From Candidatus Hodarchaeota archaeon (GTDB lineage Archaea; Asgardarchaeota; Heimdallarchaeia; Hodarchaeales; Hodarchaeaceae): DNA of 64,000 nucleotides. Of this stretch, positions 3,743 to 17,538 are shown one piece after another (position 1 is the stretch's first letter; every line of letters begins with the position of its first letter). A program made the translations under genes and the position numbers. The stretch covers positions 6,835 to 70,834 of the forward strand of contig JAEOTQ010000168.1 of assembly GCA_016839785.1 (NCBI GenBank), in the 5' to 3' direction. Under the pieces are notes generated by a model. It worked only from the letters and a program-made list of their open reading frames with translations, ran no database searches and had not been told where the DNA came from.

Positions 3743-5020
3743 TCAATGGGAAAATAGGTTATTCTCTTCAGCAAATTGAATTCTTCTTCGAAATAGCTCA
3801 GTGATGGCAAAGGATACTACAGTCAATGCTAGCATAAATAGTAATCCACCAACTGGCGATTGGAACGTATCTAAAAGTGCACCGAAGATCGTGGGGGAAA
3901 TAGAGCTAATAATAAGCCCTAGTGAAAAAACAAGTGAATAGAAAAAGGTTCTATCACCCGCGGGGACTAAATCAGCCTGTAATGCTTGTAATGTTCCTCC
4001 CGCTAGATAAAATCCAATAGCAAATAGAGAAAATCCGAGAATAATCACTAGAATTTCGGGAAAACCCAGAGTAATTACAATAAGCCCAGTAATTGCCAGA
4101 CTAGAAATGAGTGCCGAAATTAGTATTATTCTGATTCTCCCACGTGGACCCAAGCGATCAGAATTGATTGCTCCATAGATATCAGAAATAGATCCTAAAA
4201 GGAGAATAAAACTGGTTATAACTCCTGCATTGAAAGCTTCGACATGATAAAAATTCTTCAATAAAGTGGTCGTAAAATAGCTGATAGAGCGATAAACTCC
4301 ACCTCGTAATGCACTTATTAAAATAATTATAGCTAAACTCGTTATAATCCACTTTCGGTGGGGAGAGGAGCGAATGGAAGTACTGCTCTCCAACTCACTG
4401 ACAGTTTTTTCTTTTTCTCTTGATTTCAATAGGGATTCAAAGTTTCCAATCAAATTTTCAAGTAAAATCCAAGAAATGAGACTAAATACAAGAAGAATGC
4501 AAAACACACCAAGGAGGAAAAAGGTCGATCTCCAAGTGAAAAAAAAGATAGCTAAAGTTAAGGTGCTAATGGGACTAACAGCGGTTCCAATCACACCTGC
4601 TGCATGGTTGATAGCCATGGCTTTTCCCCGATTGCGATCTGAAAAAGAATTTGCGCAGACCCCTAATCCCACAGGATGATAAGTTGTACAGCCAAGACCA
4701 AGAATAATATTACCAAAAAACAATCCCAAGAAATCATTGGCCATCGAAATCCAAAAACTTGAGACAGCAAATAGAAAGATCCCCATAAGGACTATGAAAA
4801 ATCCTTTAGCAGCCTTTTTTCCTAAATATCCAATAAGTGGAGAGGTCAAAGCCATGATTAATGACGGAAGAGACCCTAATATTCCCATCTCAAGATAACT
4901 GAGAGGAATGTCCGTAATAATCAGAATGAGCAAAGCTGGAAAGGCATACAACAACACATGATGAATAAAGTGGGATATTGACATAAATCCGAGCAATTGG
5001 TGGCGAATATTCAATGACAA
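3743..5020 (-). CDS. MFS-type transporter
   Basis: 425 aa, strongly hydrophobic with about 12 predicted TM segments and a central hydrophilic loop. TGA stop. Confidence 0.7.
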   Translation of the reverse strand: MSLNIRHQLLGFMSISHFIHHVLLYAFPALLILIITDIPLSYLEMGILGSLPSLIMALTSPLIGYLGKKAAKGFFIVLMGIFLFAVSSFWISMANDFLGLFFGNIILGLGCTTYHPVGLGVCANSFSDRNRGKAMAINHAAGVIGTAVSPISTLTLAIFFFTWRSTFFLLGVFCILLVFSLISWILLENLIGNFESLLKSREKEKTVSELESSTSIRSSPHRKWIITSLAIIILISALRGGVYRSISYFTTTLLKNFYHVEAFNAGVITSFILLLGSISDIYGAINSDRLGPRGRIRIILISALISSLAITGLIVITLGFPEILVIILGFSLFAIGFYLAGGTLQALQADLVPAGDRTFFYSLVFSLGLIISSISPTIFGALLDTFQSPVGGLLFMLALTVVSFAITELFRRRIQFAEENNLFSH

Positions 5021-5191
5021 ATCAGGGACCTCTTGGATAAGAAGGAATAAAGGGATGTAGTGTAGGAGAAATTCAACCTCGTTTTCTGAATTTGACTAGT
5101 TTAATACCCATGCTCGGAAACGAAATTACGTCTCATAAGATGAGCGAATTTTTTAATTATTTGGGTATGTATCAGGAGAATTTCGGATGAA

Positions 5192-6511
5192 TTATCCTTC
5201 AGGAATAGGATTAATTGGCTTAAGAGGTTCATCCACAAAATAAAAAGCTAATCCTCCAAGTACTCGCAAAACCATCACTACTAAAACAAGAGAGTAGATA
5301 GTTGGCCACTTACCTAAAACTGGAATCAGTAGTTCTGTCACAACACCCATAGAAAAAGAACCCAGGAAAGTAACGATACCCATAATTAGCTGATAAGCTC
5401 CTACGTATCTGCCTTTAGATCCATCAGGAGCAGAATCAATGATATATGCTGTCGTGGTTACAAAATACAGTCCATACCCGATTCCACCAATAAAATTCCC
5501 AATAGCAAGTTCAACCCAATTTCTAGAAAAAAAGAGCACTAATGGTATCAGAAACATAATTCTACGGCCATTGAAACCAATCTTCTTACCGTATTTGTCA
5601 ATCAATTTGCCGCCAATTGATAGTGAAAAGATTTGACATGCCATATGGACAGCCCAGAGAAAACTATATTGACTGGGAGTAGTATAACGTTCACGAATAA
5701 ATCCGAAAATAGGCCATCCAGTTGACATGCTGAAGTCCATACAGGCACTAATTAGCACAAAACGAGTAAAAGTAGGATTCTCTCGAAAAGGAGCTAATAT
5801 GCTTCGAAAGGAAAATCTAGTATGCTTTTGTGTTGGCCTACCGTTAGATGGAGAGTGTGAATGTACCTCGAGATCAGAATTACCATTTGGATTGGTTTCT
5901 CGCAACCAGAACCAGGAAATAAAGCCGGCGAGAAGAAATCCTAAGGCACCAATACGATAAATCAGCATATACTGGGTCGTATAATCTGTGGAAAGGAATG
6001 GAATGATCCACCCCGAAATTAAAAAGACCACCATAGTGAAAATAACGGTTATAGTAGTAATACGACCAATGTAAGATCCTCTAGTACTTTCATGAGAAGT
6101 ATCACCTAAAAATGCTATCCAGGAAGGGGTAAAAATACTAAATGCTAAGGAATAAATGATCATGGCGACCAGTAAGATTAGAGGATCTGTGATCATAGGA
6201 AATAAAAAGCTCATAATGGCTGAAATAAAGAGCCCGATAACTAAAAATGGTTTTCTACCATATTTATCACTTAGTCGACCAAAGGGGAGTTGAACCGCTA
6301 ATTGAATAAGGTTTCTCATGCTAGTAATGATTGATAGAAGAATAGGAGAAGCACTAATAAATACGGCATAAATTTGGGAATAAGTGGCAACTATAAAATG
6401 ACCCGTGTCTTTTCCAATAGCTATCCCATATATGGTGCTTCCTTTGTTCTTAATACATGGTTCCTCCTGGGTTATAAGGTCTAAAGGAGGCTTAATGTCA
6501 GAATTAGTCAC
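5192..6511 (-). CDS. MFS-type transporter
   Basis: 439 aa. MFS motif-A-like FGRLSDKYGRKP and GGKLIDKYGKK in the two halves. Multi-TM profile. Confidence 0.75.
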   Translation of the reverse strand: MTNSDIKPPLDLITQEEPCIKNKGSTIYGIAIGKDTGHFIVATYSQIYAVFISASPILLSIITSMRNLIQLAVQLPFGRLSDKYGRKPFLVIGLFISAIMSFLFPMITDPLILLVAMIIYSLAFSIFTPSWIAFLGDTSHESTRGSYIGRITTITVIFTMVVFLISGWIIPFLSTDYTTQYMLIYRIGALGFLLAGFISWFWLRETNPNGNSDLEVHSHSPSNGRPTQKHTRFSFRSILAPFRENPTFTRFVLISACMDFSMSTGWPIFGFIRERYTTPSQYSFLWAVHMACQIFSLSIGGKLIDKYGKKIGFNGRRIMFLIPLVLFFSRNWVELAIGNFIGGIGYGLYFVTTTAYIIDSAPDGSKGRYVGAYQLIMGIVTFLGSFSMGVVTELLIPVLGKWPTIYSLVLVVMVLRVLGGLAFYFVDEPLKPINPIPEG

Positions 6512-6617
6512 GGTCTTCTCGAAGAAAGGGAAAAAGTGTGAAAGGAAATAGCTTCTTCCCTAAGGGTATTTTAAAAAAAAAGATGAGGGATGAAAAAATG
6601 ATTCATCCATAATTTTA

Positions 6618-8159
6618 CTAACTTTTCTTCTTTCGATGGAGTACCAGTAGTCCAAGGGTACATGAAATAATAAGAACCTGAAAACTTGGAGTAGAAGCTG
6701 TGGTAATGACAATATCAATTTCTCCAGAGAGTGGCCCTTCACCGATAGCGTTTTTTGCGCTAATAGCATAGAAAAATGAATTATCAGGAGTTGAAGGATC
6801 GGTATACTCTGAGACCACACCAAGAGTTGTGAGTAGACTCAAAGACCCTGATTCAGTCCCACGATAAATAAGATAATTAGTAATCGAAGAACCAGCATCA
6901 GTTGCAGGAGGAACCCACGTTAACTTGACTCCATTCGCCTCAAGGGAGATATTAATATTCAGTGGTGCACTTGGAGGATTTAGCTGGTAATGATAGGCCC
7001 AGGTCTCATTGAGATAGGTAGTAGGTGCACCCAGTATCCTTCCGCCGAAAAGAATCATTTTATCAGCAGAATAATCATACACCAGTGAGGAATGCGATGT
7101 GGCATGAGTTGGGGAATTCATATCGGTCCAGGTGAGAGTATTGTAATCAAAAGCCCAAGTATCAACATAGTCTGTTGGTTTTCCTCCAACAGCTTCTGTT
7201 CCACCAAATAAGATAATTCTATCAGATTCATTATCATAGTCCATTGCAGTCACCCAACGTGGGGTAGGTGCTTTAGTCGTAATGATTTGTGTCCAAGTAT
7301 CCGTATTGTAGTCATACGCCCATGTTTCATTCTTAAAGCGGTTAGCTAAAGGTTCAAAACCACCAGTCGAGCCACCAAAAAGAATTGATTTATCTGATTC
7401 AATATCATAACCAAATCCATTATCTGCCACCTTAGAAGGTTTAGTAACAGGATTCATTTGCTCCCAAGTATTTGTATTATAATCGTACGCCCATGTATCA
7501 TCAAAAAATGGTGCATTAGTAATGGAAAGATCCCGAGTATAACCTCCGTAAAGGATCACCCGATCAGATTCGGTATCATATACCATACTGCAAGCTAATC
7601 GAGGAGAAGGCGCAGTACTAGGTGACATATTTGTCCAGGTATTGGTATTCGTATCATATGCCCAGGTTTCAGGAGGGGCCTCTGTATATGTACCTCCACC
7701 GACTGCACTAACTGCTCCACCAAAGAGAATTATACGATCAGATTCAGCATCATATGCAAGACCAGGATTGGACCGACCTATAGGTGAAATGGCTGGAGTT
7801 ACATTTGTCCAGGATGCGGTCGTAAAATCAAAGGTCCAGGTATCAGTATAGTATACAAAATCTTCTCCAGAGATAATTTCTGGGAATCTTCCACTAAAAA
7901 GGATGGTTTTTGCAGACTCAATATCATAAGTCATCAGCTCATTACCTGTACGACTCCAAGGCGCACATGAAGGGTGTAATTGCACCCAATTCCCAATAGA
8001 TTCTTCAACCGTACTAGTTTCAAAAATAGTTTGGGTGATAACAACTTGTCCTTGAAAAGATGGAAAAAAAACAAGGAAAGAGATAACCAGTACACAAAAA
8101 ATATAATAGAATTGCAACTTCATTGGTTCTTTCGTATTAGAAAGAAAGGACATTAGCAT
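6618..8159 (-). CDS. Secreted Kelch-repeat protein with an FN3-like domain and a C-terminal TM anchor
   Basis: N-terminal signal/TM segment. About 6-7 repeats of the pattern ESDRIILFGG...TWAYDYNTNTW. An FN3-like segment (PSAPLNINISLEANGVKLTWVPP). C-terminal hydrophobic helix followed by HRKKKS. TAG stop. Confidence 0.75.
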   Translation of the reverse strand: MLMSFLSNTKEPMKLQFYYIFCVLVISFLVFFPSFQGQVVITQTIFETSTVEESIGNWVQLHPSCAPWSRTGNELMTYDIESAKTILFSGRFPEIISGEDFVYYTDTWTFDFTTASWTNVTPAISPIGRSNPGLAYDAESDRIILFGGAVSAVGGGTYTEAPPETWAYDTNTNTWTNMSPSTAPSPRLACSMVYDTESDRVILYGGYTRDLSITNAPFFDDTWAYDYNTNTWEQMNPVTKPSKVADNGFGYDIESDKSILFGGSTGGFEPLANRFKNETWAYDYNTDTWTQIITTKAPTPRWVTAMDYDNESDRIILFGGTEAVGGKPTDYVDTWAFDYNTLTWTDMNSPTHATSHSSLVYDYSADKMILFGGRILGAPTTYLNETWAYHYQLNPPSAPLNINISLEANGVKLTWVPPATDAGSSITNYLIYRGTESGSLSLLTTLGVVSEYTDPSTPDNSFFYAISAKNAIGEGPLSGEIDIVITTASTPSFQVLIISCTLGLLVLHRKKKS

Positions 8160-8614: not shown

Positions 8615-9583
8615 ATGGCATCTATGAAAGAAGCAAAAGCAAAACCACAGAAAAAAGGCCAGGCAGAAGACGAGGAAGAAATCCTCGAATGTAAAAACTG
8701 TGGATCGACAGATATCGTAGCCGATGAAAATCGAGGCGAATTAATCTGTGAAAAATGTGGTTATGTGCTGGAAACACGACTGATAGACGAAGGCCCCGAA
8801 TGGCGAGCATTTAATAGTGAAGAACGCGATAAACGCAGTCGTGTCGGATCGCCAAGTACATTTTCAGTCCATGATAAGGGATTATCCACTATTATAGGAT
8901 ATGAAAACCGCGATACATTCGGTAATAAACTCACCGCCTCACGACGAGCACAAATCTACCGCTTACGGAAATGGCAGATACGAACCCGAGTGCATAGCTC
9001 GATGGATCGAAATCTAGCATTCGCCATGTCAGAAATGGATCGATTGGCCTCACAACTCGGAATACCACGAAATGTGAAAGAGACATCCGCAATTATATAT
9101 CGGAAAGCAATCGAAAAACGACTCGTTCGCGGACGCTCAATAGAAGCGATGGTCGCCGCAACAATCTACGCATCAGCACGCGTACGTCGAGTCCCACGAA
9201 CACTTGATGAAATCGCCAAAGAATCACGGATAACCAAAAAAGAACTTGGCCGGTGCTATCGACTCTTATTACGCGAACTATACCTAAATATCCCATTAGC
9301 GAGCCCAATCGATTATCTCGTCCGCTTTGGAACAGAACTAAGACTTTCTGGCGTATGTCAACGAAAAGCTGCCGAAATATTAAAACGCGCAAAAGCTGGC
9401 GGATTGACGGCAGGGAAAGACCCAACGGGCCTAGCGGCTGCAGCAATCTATATCAGCGGAATAATCAACGGGGAACGAAGGACACAACGGGAAATTTCAG
9501 AAGTGGCCCACGTTACCGAAGTTACTGTGCGAAATCGCTACAAAGAGCTTGTACGTAAGCTAAGTATCGAGATTACCGTTTAG
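8615..9583 (+). CDS. tfb: Transcription initiation factor TFB (TFIIB homolog)
   Basis: 322 aa. N-terminal zinc ribbon CKNCGS...CEKCG. B-reader/linker region and two cyclin-fold repeats (e.g. RGRSIEAMVAATIYASAR, GKDPTGLAAAAIYISG). TAG stop. Confidence 0.95.
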   Translation: MASMKEAKAKPQKKGQAEDEEEILECKNCGSTDIVADENRGELICEKCGYVLETRLIDEGPEWRAFNSEERDKRSRVGSPSTFSVHDKGLSTIIGYENRDTFGNKLTASRRAQIYRLRKWQIRTRVHSSMDRNLAFAMSEMDRLASQLGIPRNVKETSAIIYRKAIEKRLVRGRSIEAMVAATIYASARVRRVPRTLDEIAKESRITKKELGRCYRLLLRELYLNIPLASPIDYLVRFGTELRLSGVCQRKAAEILKRAKAGGLTAGKDPTGLAAAAIYISGIINGERRTQREISEVAHVTEVTVRNRYKELVRKLSIEITV

Positions 9584-9595
9584 AAGGTATCTCCT
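9531..9595 (+). repeat. Direct repeat copy A (65 bp): the functional 3' end of tfb (last 17 codons, stop, and 12 nt)
   Basis: GAAATCGCTACAAAGAGCTTGTACGTAAGCTAAGTATCGAGATTACCGTTTAGAAGGTATCTCCT recurs at 15511 and 16556 in the same orientation. Confidence 0.95.
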
Positions 9596-9599
9596 CCCC

Positions 9600-9634
9600 T
9601 TTTTCCTCCTTTCCTTTTTTTAACCCCTTTTTTT
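9600..9634 (+). terminator. T-tract terminator region downstream of tfb
   Basis: Three oligo-T runs (TTTTT, TTTTTTT, TTTTTTT) lie within 35 nt after the tfb stop. This is the archaeal intrinsic termination signal type. Confidence 0.4.
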
Positions 9635-9755
9635 GCATGAAGACGTTATTTCTGATTTGAAAACAGACTCTTTCTTCTAAATTGTTACTTTTGTCTGAAA
9701 TCTGGGTGTTTATAACTGCAATCTGTGTAAACTAGAAAATTGGGAAGTAAATGTA

Positions 9756-10286
9756 ATGCCAGATAATGGAATGCCCTCTAAAATTACTGAAAGTAGAGTA
9801 TCAGTAGATTTTGACGAGTTTACAGCTGAGGATCTGATATTTGATCCCCACCCCTCAATAGATGACCGATCCTTTGTTCAAGAGGTGATTGTTCAACATC
9901 AACAAAATGATGATGGAACTTTCTCTTGGATAACCCCTCTTCCAATTAATGATTCTAGACAAGTTAAATTCTTTTTGGATAAAATTTTAAGTCAGAAATC
10001 ACATCCTCGTTTATTTAGAGGAACAGTTGAGTTTTATATATTCTTTAAGTACGCTATTGATATTGATAAATCATTGGATGAGATTATCCTCAAACTTGAA
10101 GAGCTTACCAACTTGGTTCAGACTTTACAGGAATGGATTAGAAGTAAACAAGCTCAGCTTCTTTGTGATGATCATGGTTCCGGAATATTAAGTTTTTTGG
10201 TGACCAACGAAGTTTTTTCAGAAGCTTGCACCAAATTTTCTTGGACAATAAACGAAAATGAGGTAGTAGTTCTAGCTCAGAAATAA
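9756..10286 (+). CDS. Hypothetical acidic protein (E1 cargo)
   Basis: 176-aa ORF with a TATA-like GTTTATAA about 45 nt upstream. I recognise no motif. Confidence 0.5.
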   Translation: MPDNGMPSKITESRVSVDFDEFTAEDLIFDPHPSIDDRSFVQEVIVQHQQNDDGTFSWITPLPINDSRQVKFFLDKILSQKSHPRLFRGTVEFYIFFKYAIDIDKSLDEIILKLEELTNLVQTLQEWIRSKQAQLLCDDHGSGILSFLVTNEVFSEACTKFSWTINENEVVVLAQK

Positions 10287-10353
10287 GATCTAAATAATGC
10301 CTTTGTATTTAGGTTTTTATAAATAAAAAAAAAAGAGGGGAATGGGAATGACC

Positions 10354-12567
10354 TCACTTACCAATGAAGTACCCACGCAAATCCTGTCGCTTATAGAGCT
10401 GCTTTTTAGAGCATCCTATAACTCGGGAGACATTCAATGCACTTGGTTTGATCCCTTGTGCGTTGAGTTCCTCAATGGCTTCTTCAACCATTGAAGTAGT
10501 GATATTCCTCCGTTTGTAGGAGTGTGCGTGAGAACGATCATTATACTTCTCATTGAACACTTGAATCAAGTGCTCAGAAGTTGTACAATGAGGGACATAC
10601 CAGCGTTTAGGCCGGTAAGAGGTTCCATCGTCCTTGAGTTCCTCATGAATGAGGTTCATGGTACGATGGAGAGTTCCCAACCGTCTATTTAGGATATATG
10701 GTTGGATCCCTTCAAGATATGGTCGAAGAGCGGGATGAACGCGCAGCTCATCCGTAGAGTAGATATTACCATCCTCCAAGATCTGAAGGATAGTGGTGCA
10801 TACATGAACCGATAACTGTTGGTCTAATTTCCTCTCTGCTGAGAAGGAATTAGCAACAGCTAAGAGTTTAGAATGCTTATGCCAGAGACCCAATAGTGGA
10901 TCACGGACATAAAGAGGTGCTACATCATAAAGGAAGGCTTGTATACCCTCTTGACGTAACTGAAAACTATGGACCCCATCACGTTTACTTCGATACCAAT
11001 CGGAATGATCATATCCCAACTGATCGCATAAACGCATAATGAGGTGAAGGATTCCCAATTCTTTCTGTGTAATAGATATATCCGCACCAATACATCCATC
11101 ATCTACAATGAAAGCGGCGAGGAATTGTACTTTCCAATCTCGATAACGAGCTGGTAAATTGAGTACAAAGTGAAGAAAGGAAGGGGTCCGAAGGTCACGA
11201 AATGTGATCCCTCGAATAGTTCCCAGCATAGCATAAACTAATGCTTTGGGATATATCATCCTGTCATAATCTATAGTAGGATCACGACTCAGATGAGAGA
11301 GAAGAGTTCGCATGGGACCCTGATTTTCGGGGAGTTGAATCCACCGTAGATCAGGATTTTTGCGAAAATGGACATTGCCGTCACCGGCAATGTGAGAGAG
11401 TATTCGCCAGGCATAGATATCCATGACGAATGGGAATGTGAGGTACTCCAGGTCACCTCGTTTTGAAAATCGAACCGCTCGCGCGTTTCGCTCAACCTGG
11501 TTAAGGTCCATCTCTGCATACAGGCAGAGACGTTCGAGATTCGGTACCACGATCGATTGATCTGGGGAATCCCGGATATTGGATAAGATTGTCCTACTTA
11601 TCCCAATCTCTCGACTCAATGTCGACAGATTGATTCCTTTCAACATGGTTGAAAGGGTAATCCAATCCTTTTTGCCCAACAGGACATAGAGATTGGTAAA
11701 CTCCCAAAGAGACACCTCCTGGAAGGTGTACTCTTCAGGGACGACCGGCCATGTGGCCTCTGGGAGGCCTGTTATGACACGGTCAGGAAGTGGGGTCTTT
11801 GCCCCAGCTTTCCTAGAGGGAGGGGTGTGTTGTGACATCGTCATTTCACCACGTGTAGAGTGTCTACCTGCCTCTTCCATGTCACCATGGACGAGGACCA
11901 TGCCCGAGGGCTTCTCAGAAAAGACATGTCTTGCGACACCTCTTCTCTGAGGAGATACGACCTTGAAGGGGTCGTGTCCCTGTGGTAGTTGGGTATGGCT
12001 TTGAGTTAACACTCTTCTGGTGACTGACACACTCTCTCTGGCTAGTTCCTGACCATGTGTGTAAGTCGGATTTCTCTCTTTGTGATGTATACGCTGTTGT
12101 TGTGGATGTTGTTCTTCTTCCGTATTCCCTTCATTGGATGTTTTTGTTTCCCTACAAAAGAATTGCCTGTCTTGTGACCCGATCCAACTTGGAGAGTCGA
12201 CGAGGCCAGCATTTTGTTGATGGATAAGTTGTGCTGGTTGGTGTTGGACGTGATTTAGTGATTGCCTCTGCGATGTTCGCGGGCTTAGAGCACTAGGGTC
12301 CGTACCGTGAATCAGGGTTTTTTGACTTCGTCCTTGGGCTTTGTCCTCCTGATTCTGTTCGGGATACAGGGCTAGTTTCGTCACGGGCTGAGGTAGATGG
12401 GTGTCTCCAAGTATCGATGACCAAGAACCATTCCTCTTTTCGCCTCGTGTGTTTTTAGCCAACATCGGTTGTTCACCGTGTTTTTTTTTCCACATGCCTT
12501 TTTTGTGCAAGTGGTAGGCAAGTACTGGCTTCCAGCACTTTCTACATATGGTTGTGAATTTTAACAT
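10354..12567 (-). CDS. Large element protein: Cys/His-rich N-terminus, ~280-aa low-complexity region, HTH, double LAGLIDADG-like core, C-terminal HTH
   Basis: 737 aa. Q/H/S/T/R/P-rich segment at roughly residues 30-300. HTH-like LSTLSREIGISRTILSNIRD. LAGLIDADG-like motifs ILSHIAGDGNV and FLAAFIVDDGCIG about 95 aa apart. C-terminal HTH-like LNVSRVIGCSKKQLYKRQ. Confidence 0.6.
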   Translation of the reverse strand: MLKFTTICRKCWKPVLAYHLHKKGMWKKKHGEQPMLAKNTRGEKRNGSWSSILGDTHLPQPVTKLALYPEQNQEDKAQGRSQKTLIHGTDPSALSPRTSQRQSLNHVQHQPAQLIHQQNAGLVDSPSWIGSQDRQFFCRETKTSNEGNTEEEQHPQQQRIHHKERNPTYTHGQELARESVSVTRRVLTQSHTQLPQGHDPFKVVSPQRRGVARHVFSEKPSGMVLVHGDMEEAGRHSTRGEMTMSQHTPPSRKAGAKTPLPDRVITGLPEATWPVVPEEYTFQEVSLWEFTNLYVLLGKKDWITLSTMLKGINLSTLSREIGISRTILSNIRDSPDQSIVVPNLERLCLYAEMDLNQVERNARAVRFSKRGDLEYLTFPFVMDIYAWRILSHIAGDGNVHFRKNPDLRWIQLPENQGPMRTLLSHLSRDPTIDYDRMIYPKALVYAMLGTIRGITFRDLRTPSFLHFVLNLPARYRDWKVQFLAAFIVDDGCIGADISITQKELGILHLIMRLCDQLGYDHSDWYRSKRDGVHSFQLRQEGIQAFLYDVAPLYVRDPLLGLWHKHSKLLAVANSFSAERKLDQQLSVHVCTTILQILEDGNIYSTDELRVHPALRPYLEGIQPYILNRRLGTLHRTMNLIHEELKDDGTSYRPKRWYVPHCTTSEHLIQVFNEKYNDRSHAHSYKRRNITTSMVEEAIEELNAQGIKPSALNVSRVIGCSKKQLYKRQDLRGYFIGK

Positions 12568-12768
12568 GAATGGTCGTTCACAATTCCACTTTCCATATTG
12601 CCTGTTGGTACTAAATTAAGAACCATCTAGGATTGTTCCCACCCCTTTTATACTTGTAAAAATTGGTTGATATTCCATTTTGCTCCTCGAAATTTTATGG
12701 ACTCACGTACTTGGATTTTCGAATATAAATATCATCTACCCTTATACATTATTGATGAGTGAAAAGCA

Positions 12769-13581
12769 ATGAGTGTACACACCTCTTCGGTTTCTTCGAA
12801 TAAATCTCAATTCCCTTTGGATGACGCTTTTTCAGAATGTGCCAAGATTTCCATCCCCGGGGATTCCTCTTTTCCCGAACGTCGTCCAATTCCTACTTAT
12901 TTAAAGAGTTTAGATTATAAATGGAGAGGAGGATGGTTTTGGCAATGGCCAGTATTAATTGCTGGTCCAAAAGGGGCAGGAAAAAGCCTTTTTCTTGCAC
13001 AATTGATTGCCTCTACTCTCTTAAGCTGTCGAAAGCCTTGGCAGGTTCTCTATTACGACTTTAATCTAGATTATCAAGCCCAACGCATTCTACGAGTGTT
13101 AAAAATGCGCTCTCAAACCGCTACTCCTGCCTCGTATCTTAGTCGAATTGACAAACTCACACTCCCCTCTAAGATTTGGAATGATTATTTCTTTTATCCT
13201 ATAGTGAAGCATTCTATGCTTGCTACCTTAGTTCTTGATGGCTGGAATACTTTTTTCCCTTCTGTCGATGGATTGAGAGGTTTTGCAGAGATTGCTAGAA
13301 AAAAACAAATGGGCTTACTGGTGACTATGCGTGGTGATCTTGATGAGCTGCTTAAATCTACCCCCTGGACCTCCATTCCCTACTTCATGTATATCACCAA
13401 ACAGAAACATAAACAGCACAGGATTCGTCTGTGGCAAAATTCCCCTACTAGTCAGATCTATGATCGTGTAGTGGAATTTAAAGGGTATTTTATAGAATTT
13501 CGATCAAAAAAGAAAGAAAAACAAGCTTCGAAGCCCCGCTTACTTACAGTTTATGGTGCTTCCCCTTCCACGAGGGATTAA
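12769..13581 (+). CDS. RecA-superfamily (KaiC/RepA/DnaB-C-like) P-loop ATPase
   Basis: 270 aa. Walker A VLIAGPKGAGKSLF and Walker B-like ATLVLDGW. TATA-like ATATAAATA lies ~40 nt upstream. The 3' end contains an A_AAA_AAG heptamer. Confidence 0.65.
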   Translation: MSVHTSSVSSNKSQFPLDDAFSECAKISIPGDSSFPERRPIPTYLKSLDYKWRGGWFWQWPVLIAGPKGAGKSLFLAQLIASTLLSCRKPWQVLYYDFNLDYQAQRILRVLKMRSQTATPASYLSRIDKLTLPSKIWNDYFFYPIVKHSMLATLVLDGWNTFFPSVDGLRGFAEIARKKQMGLLVTMRGDLDELLKSTPWTSIPYFMYITKQKHKQHRIRLWQNSPTSQIYDRVVEFKGYFIEFRSKKKEKQASKPRLLTVYGASPSTRD

Positions 13582-13766
13582 CAATATATTCAGAAGCTTT
13601 TCGTCTTTCTGCAGCGAGTTCGTCATTTTCTGACCACGATTTACCCTCTGAAATTCGTGCTCACTTTCCGTTTCCCTCTTTTCGTCCTGGTCAGGCACAG
13701 GTCTTAGCTTTAATCGCTGCTAATCCACGGATAGCTATCAATGCGTATACAGGTTTTGGCAAATCG

Positions 13767-15416
13767 GTGATTGCTTTTGCTGCGCTTTGGGAGCAAATGA
13801 AAAGCGGTGATTATCAGTTATGGTGTTTTTCCAAGACCAAAGCACAGCTTCGTTCGGTTTTTCTCAAGACCCTGAAACAATTCTATAGTCATCCTCCCGC
13901 TGATCAACTTACTCTTCTTCCTCTGATCGCCAGTAAAGATCTTTGCCCTTTATCTCACGAGGCGGAATGTTTTCATTGTTCCCAGAAAAAACGAACTCGT
14001 TTTTCATCACTTAAGACTTTAAAGGAGGTTCTTCCCCATCTTACTCTTGCTCAATGCCCGAATACTTTTGATGGTTTTCGACAGCTTTTATCTCCTTATG
14101 GTTGTCCCGCCCAGGTTATTAGACGGTTGCTCCCCCAAATAAACATCATTTTATTACCTCAGGGATATCTCGAATCTCAGCAGTTACGCTTTTCATTAAC
14201 TAAGTTCTTTTGGAATGCTTATTATTTTGGGTTTCGTTGGAGTCACCGTTTCGCCATTATCGATGAAACACATAATTTCGGACCCACAATTGAAGCAGAG
14301 GTTAATAGGGATCATCTCGATCGTGTTCAATCCATAGGAGCCTTTCCCGTTGTGGAAACTCTGCAGAACTTGTGTCAAAAACGTTTAGGTAGAGTCACTC
14401 GGCCTCTTACCACGGATCGTACCCAGGCAGTCAAAATCGACTCTTTTCTTCAGCAAAAAGGTATTCGTCATTCTCTTTCACCTGAGGATCTTGCTGCTTT
14501 CCATGCCGTCCGAACCTTCCTTCTTCGTAAAGGTCAATATTGGGTTCATACTAAGGAGGGATTAGTCCAGTTCGATCCTTTTCCAAAGCAAATCTTTGAG
14601 TATGTCAATCGACACTTTTCCCGAACGATTCTATTTTCTGCTACTTTTCAGTATCTCAAATACTATTCCCATTATTATGGTCTGAAACAACCTTGGAATG
14701 TGTATCATTTACATAATGTAAAAACCCCTAAAGCTCGAATCCGTCAGTTGTTGATAACGGCTCTAATAAGTCCCCAGATTAGTAGTTCTCAGCGCAATCG
14801 GACATCAACTTTGCTTAAATGGTGCGCTCAAACCATTAAAGATATTGCTTTAGAAATTCCAGACCATACTTGGGTTTTTGTCCCCTCGTATGAATTCTTG
14901 GAGGAACTTTATCCGCTTGTTCAAGACCAATTGTCTGAGACCATGTCTCTTTTCCATGAACCCAGAAAAGGGCAGATTCCCTTCCTCTCTGAGTTAATCT
15001 CTGGTCCTCCGAGTGTGGTTATAGCGGTTTATGGGGGAAAATTCAGTGAGGGTGTGGAGGTTCGTCATCCCAAAACAGGTCGAAGTCGGGTACGGATGGT
15101 TATCTTAGTTGGATTACCCTTTCCAGCCCCAACACCTGAATATAGATTGCTATTTAATCTCTATCTTCGTTGCTATCGACATCTTCACTTTGTTAAGTGG
15201 ACGTTAATTGAACGTCATCTCTATACACAGGTTCGACAATGTCTTGGACGGGCCATTCGCTCTGAAGCTGATCAAGCCACAGGTCTGATTCTTGACTATC
15301 GAGCGTTTTATAATCGTCATCATCTCCCCAACTTGCGTATGTTTCGGTATTTTGATGATTTAAAATCATTTCTTCATCGTCGTTTTCGCCAATTGAAAGA
15401 ATATGACAATTTTTGA
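13767..15416 (+). CDS. XPD/Rad3/DinG-family Fe-S helicase. ORF-track start shown; homology continues upstream to at least ~13650.
   Basis: Cys cluster CPLSHEAECFHC...CPNTF...GCPAQ. DExH-like IIDETHNF. Motif VI QCLGRAIRSEADQATGLILD. The motif Q/I region FPFPSFRPGQ...AYTGFGKS lies in the same frame upstream of the GTG at 13767, with no ATG/GTG/TTG before it. Confidence 0.75.
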   Translation: MIAFAALWEQMKSGDYQLWCFSKTKAQLRSVFLKTLKQFYSHPPADQLTLLPLIASKDLCPLSHEAECFHCSQKKRTRFSSLKTLKEVLPHLTLAQCPNTFDGFRQLLSPYGCPAQVIRRLLPQINIILLPQGYLESQQLRFSLTKFFWNAYYFGFRWSHRFAIIDETHNFGPTIEAEVNRDHLDRVQSIGAFPVVETLQNLCQKRLGRVTRPLTTDRTQAVKIDSFLQQKGIRHSLSPEDLAAFHAVRTFLLRKGQYWVHTKEGLVQFDPFPKQIFEYVNRHFSRTILFSATFQYLKYYSHYYGLKQPWNVYHLHNVKTPKARIRQLLITALISPQISSSQRNRTSTLLKWCAQTIKDIALEIPDHTWVFVPSYEFLEELYPLVQDQLSETMSLFHEPRKGQIPFLSELISGPPSVVIAVYGGKFSEGVEVRHPKTGRSRVRMVILVGLPFPAPTPEYRLLFNLYLRCYRHLHFVKWTLIERHLYTQVRQCLGRAIRSEADQATGLILDYRAFYNRHHLPNLRMFRYFDDLKSFLHRRFRQLKEYDNF

Positions 15417-15510
15417 GATACTTTGGGGAGGGAGCTGTCAAAAATCTACTCGTCTATTGAAGTACAAAGTTTCAACTTTTAATTTCTTGGATTGTTTCGC
15501 AAAAATTTAC

Positions 15511-15575
15511 GAAATCGCTACAAAGAGCTTGTGCGCAAGCTGAGTATCGAGATTACCGTGTAGACGGTATCTCCT
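15511..15575 (+). repeat. Direct repeat copy B (65 bp, displaced tfb 3' end)
   Basis: 5 mismatches to copy A. The 4 inside the coding part are all third-position synonymous, so it still spells RNRYKELVRKLSIEITV*. Confidence 0.95.
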
Positions 15576-16461
15576 TTATTTTTTTCTTTTTTCGGCGAGT
15601 GGAGAGACTGTGTGTACAAATAATTAGTGCTATTGTGATTAATAAGTGATCTATAGAAGTAGTAAGATTTATTGAGGGAGTTTCTGTTGGTTTTTCTATT
15701 TTGATGTCCCAATGATAAATCATTCCATTCCCATTTAAGTCCAGAAAATGAGTAAATAGAGTATAACTACCATTAGGGTAATTTTGACTAGCTATGTGAA
15801 TTTCAAAAGTGTACGCAACTGTCTTAGGGCCTGTGTACTCTAAATTTGTTTTTAATTCTATATCAGATTCAAAAAAAGTTTCTGTAGATTGTTTTAAAGT
15901 CACGGAGGCTTCTTTAATGTCATTATTTGTCTCAACAGATCCATTAATTGTAATATTTCCCATCCAGATTTGATTATCTTTGATTCCACTAAATGTTGCT
16001 TCTGGATATTCTTCTAATGAGGCATCATAGACAATAGTTCTTAATTTTACATTACAATAGAGATCTCCGTCTCCATACGCATCTTCTGAAGCTATTGTGA
16101 AATCTTTTTCTTCTTCCACACTCATGCCCACAATTGCTTCTTTGAACTTGAGGAGATAACTTGCACTTGCATCTGGATACAATACGAGGATATTTCCAGG
16201 CACTATATCATTAGTAGCAAGGTATACATTGTTCAAAGAGTTAATGGTGTCTGAATGTACGGAATTTTCTTCTCTCGTAAAAGAAAAGTCTACATTCACT
16301 ATATCTCCCCAGTTTGCAGTTACTTCCATACCCCTAGCAGTATATCCAATCACCCAAATATTAAATAGAACGATAACAACTAAGATTATCTTCCTTGACT
16401 TCAAGTTGTTTCCCACCTTCATCACTATCTTATTTTTGTTAAACTGTTCTAATAAAACCAT
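15553..16461 (-). CDS. Membrane-anchored extracellular protein (E2 cargo)
   Basis: 302 aa with an N-terminal TM/signal segment (IILVVIVLFNIWVIGYTARG) and a C-terminal TM followed by RRKKKK. Its last codons and stop lie inside repeat copy B, on the opposite strand. Confidence 0.55.
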   Translation of the reverse strand: MVLLEQFNKNKIVMKVGNNLKSRKIILVVIVLFNIWVIGYTARGMEVTANWGDIVNVDFSFTREENSVHSDTINSLNNVYLATNDIVPGNILVLYPDASASYLLKFKEAIVGMSVEEEKDFTIASEDAYGDGDLYCNVKLRTIVYDASLEEYPEATFSGIKDNQIWMGNITINGSVETNNDIKEASVTLKQSTETFFESDIELKTNLEYTGPKTVAYTFEIHIASQNYPNGSYTLFTHFLDLNGNGMIYHWDIKIEKPTETPSINLTTSIDHLLITIALIICTHSLSTRRKKKKIKEIPSTR

Positions 16462-16555
16462 TCATCAATCATTCTACCTAGATTCAAATGCTATTTTCTG
16501 AATATTAGATATAAAGTGAAATATTAGATTATCAACATTACTAAGATAACCATGT

Positions 16556-16620
16556 GAAATCGCTACAAAGAGCTTGTACGCAAGCTTAGTACCGAGATCA
16601 CCGTATAGACGGGATCTCCT
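16556..16620 (+). repeat. Direct repeat copy C (65 bp, displaced tfb 3' end)
   Basis: 7 mismatches to copy A. In the coding part, 4 are synonymous and 1 is non-synonymous (Ile to Thr). It is preceded by TGA instead of CGA. Confidence 0.9.
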
Positions 16621-16917
16621 ATCTTTTTTCTTTTAATGTTTCACGAATTCGGGTACCAATAAATCTAATTTCATATTATTACATAGAGCGTTATCTGCTA
16701 TTTTTTTTGCGTATCCATGGAAATTAATGAGATTTATTTTAATCTTTATGGAGCTAGAATAAATTCTGAGGTTTTTAATCCCTCTAACTGTTCTAAAGGG
16801 AATGATCCCCTCCCCTTGCGTGATATCTGGTGCAGGTATCCTCTCTCTTATTAACTAATTAATTAGTATTTTTCCTATCTTTATGACTAAGCGAATATAA
16901 ACAAAATGTGATTTTAT

Positions 16918-17538
16918 ATGTTCATTTCAGAAATTTTTTCAAACCGAATTGGAAATCGGGAAGCCCTTGGATTTTTTCTTTTTATTGGGCCTCTCCAATT
17001 TATTCTAAGTGTGTTGATTGCCGAAGGAATGGCTGAATCGTATGATTCAGGTCTTCATTATGTCAGTTCCTTGGGCGTGGGAGCAACGGCCAATCTTTTC
17101 AACACTTCAGTCCTTATCCTCGGAATTTGTATTTTATTAGGAACATACTTTTTTCATCTAGAATATCCAGAACGAATACCTACAGTGTTTTTACTACTCA
17201 CTGCCCTTTCTGCCGTTGGTGTGGGGGTATTTCCTGAGGATGCTCCTCCCTTTCATGGCATTTTTACAGGATTTGTATTTTTGTTTGCAGCGATCTTTTT
17301 AATTTCAATTATCAAGGTAAACCGATCTTTACCTCTTATTTCTCTCTCTATATTGGGAGGTGTGATTCTAATTGCAAGTCTTCTCTTCCTTCCCTATCTC
17401 GGTTTGGATGTTGAAGATCCCACAAAATTCCTAGGTTTTATGAAAGGTACATTAGAACGATTCATTATATATCCCACCCTATCAGGATTTCTTATTCTCA
17501 GTGGCTATCTCAGTAGAAGCACAGACACGAAAGTTTAG
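16918..17538 (+). CDS. DUF998-like integral membrane protein
   Basis: 206 aa with about 6 TM segments. The N-terminal pattern GFFLFIGPLQFILSVLIAEG resembles DUF998. TAG stop. Confidence 0.5.
   Translation: MFISEIFSNRIGNREALGFFLFIGPLQFILSVLIAEGMAESYDSGLHYVSSLGVGATANLFNTSVLILGICILLGTYFFHLEYPERIPTVFLLLTALSAVGVGVFPEDAPPFHGIFTGFVFLFAAIFLISIIKVNRSLPLISLSILGGVILIASLLFLPYLGLDVEDPTKFLGFMKGTLERFIIYPTLSGFLILSGYLSRSTDTKV

Follow-up and report, generated by a model that had tools for sequence, protein, structure and literature searches.

The systems closest to the locus described here are the mORFs of fungal mitochondria, in which a LAGLIDADG or GIY-YIG gene lies at the 3' end of atp6, atp9, cox2 or nad3, as in atp6 of Allomyces macrogynus and atp6, atp9, cox2 and nad3 of Glomus (PMC3630166). 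The mORFs bring a foreign in-frame C-terminus, and the native terminus persists downstream as a second copy; the DNA of the two copies has diverged while their protein is ~100% identical, with the native copy being the one closest to the termini of relatives (PMC3630166).

Among Asgard archaea, the portions considered here of the report on HeimM2, an element of ~8 kb from Ca. Heimdallarchaeum, describe a homing-endonuclease homologue beside a highly conserved gene, and its authors suggested that the nuclease had been co-opted for site-specific insertion (Wu et al. 2022; PMC8813620). As described in those portions, HeimM2 resembles the present locus in being a Heimdall-group Asgard element with a homing-endonuclease-type gene that adjoins a conserved gene, but its target is the junction of 16S rRNA and tRNA-Arg rather than a protein gene, and the same portions make no mention of a duplicated gene terminus or an array, unlike the islands reported here.

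The prophages e14 and phage 21 supply the essential icd gene of E. coli with an alternative 3' end, most of whose differences from the displaced native end are synonymous, and they integrate by means of a tyrosine integrase at a defined att core. The islands described below likewise supply an alternative gene end but, unlike e14 and phage 21, no integrase was found in those searched.

The locus lies in a 64,000-nt stretch of DNA from a Candidatus Hodarchaeota archaeon (hereafter the window), at the 3' end of tfb, which encodes the archaeal transcription factor B (TFB). It resembles the mORFs in having an endonuclease gene at the 3' end of a conserved gene, with an in-frame terminus joined to the gene and a displaced duplicate beyond the island (tfb-A/island/B); in having copies that are divergent in DNA and encode the same protein; and in that a displaced copy (C) matches the live terminus of a relative, the history of the tfb terminus being unlike that of the gene core. 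It differs from the mORFs in being located on an archaeal chromosome with tfb as target, in having an unfused endonuclease gene that is read from the other strand and separated from the tfb stop by ~770 nt, including a 176-aa ORF, and in encoding a protein of ~700 aa with extra domains on either side of the nuclease core. The tfb unit also differs in having several kilobases of cargo, up to 4-5 stacked termini and a duplicated terminator hairpin. A search of the literature found no description of tfb-targeted endonuclease islands.

Three copies of the tfb terminus in the window

The window holds three direct copies of a unit of ~65-100 nt, the live end of tfb (copy A) and two displaced copies (B and C; Table 1). 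The copies had been recognised correctly in an initial annotation of this DNA, which placed the start of copy B one base late, at 15511; in codon register the copies start at 9530 (A), 15510 (B) and 16555 (C).

Table 1. Features at the tfb locus of the window
Feature	Coordinates	Strand	Observations
tfb, archaeal transcription factor B, 322 aa (target gene)	8615..9583	+	Pfam TFIIB 4.1e-43; Zn_Ribbon_TF 7e-20
Copy A, live tfb terminus (54 nt incl. stop; 9530-9583) and element-linked post-stop flank	9530..9623	+	
Hairpin of copy A	9569..9593		
Island 1 (~5.9 kb, between copies A and B)	9624..15509	.	
176-aa ORF, adjoins endonuclease gene	9756..10286	+	Conserved: 45% identity in L001, 27% in L002
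737-aa LAGLIDADG homing-endonuclease-like protein (modelled)	10354..12567	-	
270-aa KaiC/RecA-like P-loop ATPase, cargo	12769..13581	+	Pfam KaiC 6.8e-06 (just below cut-off); PHROG DnaB-like 6.6e-05
549-aa DinG/XPD-like helicase, cargo	13767..15416	+	Pfam Helicase_C_2 1e-23; PADLOC typeIV_DinG 1.9e-33
Copy B, displaced tfb terminus (15510-15563)	15510..15600	+	Peptide intact; then T-run and native-type flank TTTTTCGGCGAGT
Hairpin of copy B	15549..15573		
302-aa ORF, sole gene of cassette 2 (~1 kb, B to C)	15553..16461	-	Weak FKBP_C match
Copy C, older displaced terminus (repeat 16555-16608)	16535..16634	+	TGA at 16555; Ile to Thr
Hairpin of copy C	16594..16618		
DUF998 gene, first conserved host gene right of array	16918..17538	+	Pfam DUF998 5.2e-16

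Copies A and B share an identical block of 23 nt at the start of the repeat, and over the 54 nt including the stop they differ at four positions (GTA/GTG, CGT/CGC, CTA/CTG and GTT/GTG), all of which are synonymous third-position changes, with a fifth difference 2 nt past the stop (AAG/ACG). Alignment in this way confirmed the differences first reported between the two copies, and copy B still encodes RNRYKELVRKLSIEITV followed by a stop. The sequence of copy B and its flank has 88.9% identity over 90 nt with the tfb end and flank of L006, a related contig that is free of the element (comparison contigs are designated L). The last 104 nt of the tfb coding sequence (CDS) in another relative, L095, are identical to those of the window, and the similarity extends through the flank to 9623.

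Copy C differs from copy A by four synonymous third-position changes, by ATC to ACC (Ile to Thr) and by CGA to TGA in the first repeat codon. The synonymous changes and the Ile-to-Thr change had been described correctly, but the TGA, attributed to the codon upstream, is the first codon of the repeat itself. Upstream of copy C, ~20 nt of degraded and weaker tfb-like sequence can be recognised (ITKITM-stop vs VTEVTVR).

A TGA in place of the live AGA or CGA recurs at the start of older displaced copies in four genomes (window 16555, L001r 20196, L002r 17378 and L047 13882), and copy 4 of L047 has TAG at the same start codon position. This recurrence could reflect either shared ancestry of the right-end structure or a junction effect.

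With 24% of random single-base changes in the terminus stretch expected to be synonymous, the probability that all four of the differences between A and B would be so is 0.0034, and that of at least 7 of the 9 changes inferred among the three window copies is 0.0011. The live tfb end of L096, from another strain, and its flank match copy C (16553-16633) with 93.8% identity over 81 nt, the differences numbering 3 of 54 coding and 1 of 14 flank positions, as against 6-8 of 54 coding positions for other live ends. Copy B is equidistant from all live tfb termini compared. The match of copy C to a live end agrees with the initial proposal that every copy serves, or once served, as a functional end of tfb under purifying selection in a different lineage.

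Arrays of tfb ends across Hodarchaeales

Homologues of tfb and its neighbour genes were drawn from MAGs of Hodarchaeales and other Heimdall-group Asgard archaea. In 11 independent contigs (the window, L001, L002, L003, L009, L086 and L088-L092), a homologue of the endonuclease gene faces the 3' end of tfb in convergent orientation, and fragments of the gene are present at tfb-end loci in four more, as C-terminal stumps that adjoin tfb itself in three (L005, L008 and L016) and an internal copy of its end in the fourth (L010). The L010 fragment lies just past the internal copy, indicating that newer cassettes entered between tfb and an older element. Repeats and endonuclease gene are both missing from L006, a contig syntenic with the window to either side, and from ~18 more distant Heimdall loci. 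L095, the closest relative, has no endonuclease gene although its A-type terminus is the same as that of the window.

Arrays of 2-5 tfb-end copies are found in the window, L001, L002, L005, L010, L016, L047, L092 and L095, with the tfb-A/endonuclease island/B layout of the window being repeated in L001, L002 and L092. In seven of them (the window, L001, L002, L047, L010, L016 and L095), comparison of each of the 14 non-live copies with its own live end gave 89 synonymous, 27 non-synonymous and 12 stop-related differences. The first displaced copies include copy B of the window (4 synonymous, 0 non-synonymous), copy 2 of L002 (12 and 0) and copy 2 of L047 (3 and 0). The synonymous bias survives the inclusion of more homologues, arrays in six other Hodarchaeales contigs repeating the pattern. 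Most arrays combine an intact first displaced copy with non-synonymous or stop changes in the copies farther out, which lends further support to the reading of the copies as former live termini. L001 is an exception in that its middle copy is more degraded than its distal copy, so that array order is not a strict clock. The edges of the repeat also vary among genomes, from about -20 to +27 relative to the Arg codon on the left and from about +22 to +75 after the stop on the right.

Among eight species-level Hodarchaeales genomes, TFB protein identity is 95-99% and tfb DNA identity is 77-88%. In the clade of the window, 113-134 nucleotide differences per 969 nt of tfb correspond to 2-3 amino-acid differences. 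Synonymous divergence across the gene as a whole is 12-22% between the genomes compared. The tfb ends of different lineages thus differ almost only synonymously because the whole of tfb does, and very strong purifying selection on TFB, together with the constraint of the hairpin described below, accounts for synonymous-only divergence without deliberate recoding being required. The description of the element-borne copy as a recoded mimic of the host gene end was, in this light, overstated.

A hairpin at the end of tfb

Each copy in the window includes a hairpin spanning the final five sense codons, the stop codon and the 10 nt beyond it; in the clade of the window this hairpin reads GAGAU(U)ACCGU-NUAG-ACGGUAUCUC and is followed by a U-run. 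In 16 copies, 91.9% of hairpin cells are paired, compared with 36-50% when the partner columns are slid, and four pairs have changes on both sides. Some of the synonymous changes covary with post-stop bases, ATT to ATC, for example, being accompanied by GGT to GGG in both copy C and L096, and a terminator-like match is present in copy B at 15554-15569. The hairpin and T-run, which every copy in this clade has kept, are probably the tfb terminator, and the hairpin is a second constraint on the synonymous sites of the terminus. Scans of the tfb-terminus region for tRNA genes and Rfam families gave no match, indicating that this is not a tRNA-type att site.

The 737-aa LAGLIDADG-like protein

The 737-aa protein is composed of a low-complexity N-terminal region, a helix-turn-helix (identified by eye), a two-motif nuclease core and C-terminal helical domains. 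It has no sequence match in Pfam, PHROGs, NCBIfam, PADLOC or PDB sequences, so its fold was recognised from a structure model only, while two of its homologues (P0007 and P0047) have precomputed PF14528 matches. The AF2 model of aa 285-737 has a pLDDT of 89.9, and I-DmoI accounts for all of its top 30 Foldseek matches (probability 1.0, TM-score ~0.6 on target), followed by PI-PfuI, PI-SceI and I-OnuI (probability 1.0). Both motifs of a two-motif LAGLIDADG protein, HI(A)GDGN and QFLAAFI(V)D(D/E)G, each with an acidic residue, are present in an alignment of 23 homologues, in which G111-D112-G113 and D205 are invariant and D206 is near-invariant (E in some), such that both catalytic acidic residues are kept down to 23% identity. 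The pseudo-symmetric alpha-beta-beta-alpha-beta-beta-alpha double-domain fold is seen in the AF2 model and its Foldseek matches, and the 737-aa protein models as a two-motif, I-DmoI-like homing-endonuclease-like protein.

I-DmoI, an archaeal, intron-encoded, monomeric LAGLIDADG protein that also has two motifs with an acidic residue each, is the best structural match to the core, but sequence identity to it is only 17-19%, and it is a protein of ~190 aa inside an rRNA intron, whereas the 737-aa protein is free-standing and has large extra domains. The involvement of an element-encoded nuclease, offered in the initial annotation as the alternative reading, appears right in kind, the predicted protein being LAGLIDADG-like and the anatomy of the locus being that of endonuclease-driven terminus replacement.

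The N-terminal ~280 aa of the protein (window 11716-12567) are low-complexity, rich in Gln, His, Pro and Ser and weakly conserved, and are encoded in the most GC-rich kilobase of the window (48% vs ~37%). Overall length varies among homologues.

Distant relatives of ~390-490 aa are encoded immediately upstream of a class I aminoacyl-tRNA synthetase gene in L087 (10001-11215), L097 (723-1895), L098 (6001-7476) and L099 (2024-3499), with the called genes overlapping the synthetase gene in L097 and L098. There is no duplicate of the synthetase 5' end at these loci, and the catalytic acids are kept in P0047, the one synthetase-linked relative that was aligned. These relatives may be domesticated, or may be homing genes with another target. 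A truncated homologue of 374 aa in L084 (10001-11125), which belongs to the same assembly as L008, is located away from tfb and adjoins a membrane-protein gene, and could be a relic or could indicate a second target. No homologue of the 737-aa protein was found in IMG/VR viral contigs, giving no sign of the island being a virus.

Island cargo and flanking genes

Island 1 is missing in L006 and L095, relatives that are syntenic with the window around tfb, and is homologous to the L007 island at 70-78% nucleotide identity. The 176-aa ORF beside the endonuclease gene has no match in the family libraries searched, a homologue search returned only the window's own protein, and its single-sequence AF2 model was unusable (pLDDT 41.9). 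The 549-aa helicase also matches NCBIfam rad3 (4.4e-23, below the NCBIfam cut-off).

A pair comprising a KaiC/RecA-like ATPase of ~268 aa and a DinG/XPD-like helicase recurs in three islands (window 12769-15416, L001 7081-9712 and L085 5224-7829), the best PADLOC match of the helicase being the type IV CRISPR-associated DinG. This pair could be a defence module or an aid to recombination. Cargo differs between islands, including helicase and ATPase genes, a Piwi-domain (Argonaute-like) gene, ABC transporter genes, and RNase and ERCC4-type nuclease genes; the Piwi-domain gene is found inside the tfb-linked island of L003 (3700-5136). Cassettes located between tfb-end copies in L010 (10969-20657) and L047 (10969-15415) encode a heavy-metal P-type ATPase, an AhpC-like protein and a solute-binding protein, and have the overall look of an integron-like array. 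A true integron-like cassette array was rejected, as there is no IntI-like gene, and the hairpin in the transcribed gene end, with its T-run, reads as a terminator.

The 302-aa ORF of cassette 2 has a lysine-rich C-terminus encoded opposite the hairpin and T-run of copy B. Lysine-rich tails opposite the T-run of an adjacent tfb-end copy are present both in this ORF (window 15553-15600) and in a 218-aa ORF of the small cassette in L095 (10982-11000), and the true stops of these minus-strand ORFs may be farther in. The two ORFs were also considered as possible homologues, which they are not.

To the right of the array, the region of the DUF998 gene is syntenic with L005, L006 and L095 at 74-78% nucleotide identity. 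To the left of tfb, ~3.9 kb (window 4179-8035) are missing in L095, the flank of which is 98% identical, indicating that the region upstream of tfb is variable too. This stretch includes two MFS transporter genes, the first (3743-5020) with its start only and the second (5192-6511) complete, and a gene for a 513-aa Kelch-repeat protein (6618-8159) with internal repeats of ~171 nt.

Mosaic tfb genes

The tfb genes of the window and L096 differ at 18 of 800 positions in CDS 1-800 and at 13 of 169 in CDS 801-969 (P = 0.001), with 7 of the 13 3' differences located upstream of the repeat, which begins at CDS position 916. A similar comparison between L005, which carries an endonuclease-gene stump, and its close relative L006, which has neither repeats nor the gene, gave 17 of 800 and 14 of 169 differences (P = 0.0002), 8 of the latter being within CDS 885-912. 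Between L095 and the window, identity along the flanks of tfb declines from 98% on the left to 85% and then to 78% on the right. With the caveat that every sequence compared comes from a metagenome assembly, in which a conserved gene may be a chimera, these alignments indicate that the final ~170 nt of tfb have a history different from that of the rest of the gene and have been exchanged between lineages. Exchanged tracts that reach past the repeat fit co-conversion during break repair better than the crossover of a fixed recombinase.

Proposed terminus replacement and alternative explanations

The island sits between two copies of the tfb terminus, with copy A, joined to the gene, keeping tfb intact. 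Copies B and then C persist downstream as untranslated fossils that still show the synonymous 'dialect' of the lineage that once used them as live gene ends, and such fossil termini slowly gain non-synonymous and stop changes. These features are probably explained by an island of the homing type that replaces the terminus of tfb and leaves the old termini behind as fossils, in the manner of the fungal mitochondrial mORFs. The tfb 3' end is best read as the landing site of a family of mobile islands in which the constant gene is that of the large LAGLIDADG-like protein, and the locus as an Asgard occurrence of an arrangement of successive displaced gene ends so far described in fungal mitochondria.

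Under the mechanism proposed, the nuclease would cut island-free tfb alleles in or near the conserved ...VTVRNRYKEL... coding stretch, and the break would be repaired from an island-bearing donor, homology being provided on the left by tfb itself and on the right by the tfb-end copy downstream in the donor, which would be a portable arm. The island would be copied in together with the donor terminus, the terminator hairpin and some upstream tfb by co-conversion. Repeated invasions would stack cassettes, the newest beside tfb, and nuclease genes would later decay while the cassettes stay.

Cassettes and arrays without an endonuclease gene (L047, L095 and B-C in the window) count against homing, and would have to have moved in trans or by plain recombination, or be relics. 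So does the finding in L095 of the window's A-type terminus with no endonuclease gene. The islands of the window and L007 are about as diverged as their hosts, suggesting that much of the inheritance may be vertical, and the synthetase-linked relatives, stable and without duplication, suggest that the family may include domesticated DNA-binding proteins.

A more far-reaching and more tentative possibility is that these loci represent an undescribed class of archaeal island, in which a free-standing multi-domain LAGLIDADG nuclease homes into the tfb 3' end and brings a replacement terminus and terminator such that the gene is never broken. The displaced terminus would act as the portable right arm, cassettes would stack in an integron-like manner, and accessory and defence-type genes (Piwi-domain Argonaute-like, DinG-like helicase, transporters) would be moved between Hodarchaeales lineages, with the incoming synonymous differences blocking re-cutting.

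Within the homing explanation, it has been suggested that the island-linked synonymous differences were selected for resistance to the island's own nuclease. Such differences are dense at the left boundary of the repeat, with five between the window and L096 at CDS 891-916 and eight between L005 and L006 at CDS 885-912, and the modelled nuclease fold appears real. This form of immunity is nevertheless unlikely, as CDS 917-941 (25 nt from the second base of the repeat) are identical in copy A and the live terminus of L096, no substitution in a by-eye alignment splits gene-bearing (window, L007, L002, L003 and L009) from gene-free (L006 and L096) alleles, and the synonymous divergence found throughout tfb already predicts this many differences.

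Mobilisation by an integrase, with the tfb 3'-end copy as attP, the recombinase supplied in trans or lost, and tandem accretion at the att site, has little probability. Direct repeats do bracket the island, those of A and B starting with an identical block, and tandem arrays and cassettes without a mobility gene are typical of att-site accretion. The attP role assigned to the repeat in the initial annotation is nevertheless not borne out, as searches of the window island (Pfam) and of four other full islands (L001, L002, L003 and L085; precomputed Pfam lists) gave no domain of a tyrosine or serine recombinase or of a transposase, and the boundaries of the repeat vary between genomes. A fixed crossover would also not place foreign sequence ~90 nt into tfb upstream of the repeat, and the constant gene encodes a nuclease-fold protein rather than a recombinase.

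An equally improbable explanation is a recombination hotspot without a selfish nuclease, at which tfb and its duplicated ends are homology anchors that shuffle accessory cassettes between strains, leaving the LAGLIDADG-like protein as either a DNA-binding factor that had been domesticated or a further item of cargo. The nuclease-free arrays of L047 and L095, the mosaic tfb flanks on both sides in the comparison of the window with L095, and the conserved place of distant family members, without repeats, beside an aminoacyl-tRNA synthetase gene agree with this theory. Against it, both catalytic acids are kept in the 23 homologues, and the gene is tied to one exact position in 11 contigs with otherwise differing cargo. 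Its patchy presence in close relatives, often as a C-terminal stump by tfb, fits instead the cycle of gain, decay and loss of a homing gene.

The possibility that the tfb end was duplicated locally and recently and then mutated at random, raised initially as the competing outcome and in keeping with copies that are short and close together, is extremely unlikely given a synonymous bias that is significant in the window and repeated in six other contigs, the better match of copy C to the live terminus of another strain than to copy A, and intervening DNA that is foreign and missing in syntenic relatives.

Implications for Hodarchaeales

The tfb 3' ends of these genomes are mosaic and unsuitable for naive use in phylogeny, while the stacked fossil termini record one invasion after another in a form that can be dated. 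As a candidate for a new meganuclease scaffold, the 737-aa protein would have its target in a universally conserved archaeal gene. Most Asgard mobile elements described so far depend on integrases or transposases or are viruses. An active nuclease would make the tfb islands a route for horizontal gene transfer by homing in Hodarchaeales chromosomes, and would mean that the terminus-swapping strategy of mitochondrial endonuclease ORFs works in archaea too, with kilobases of cargo.
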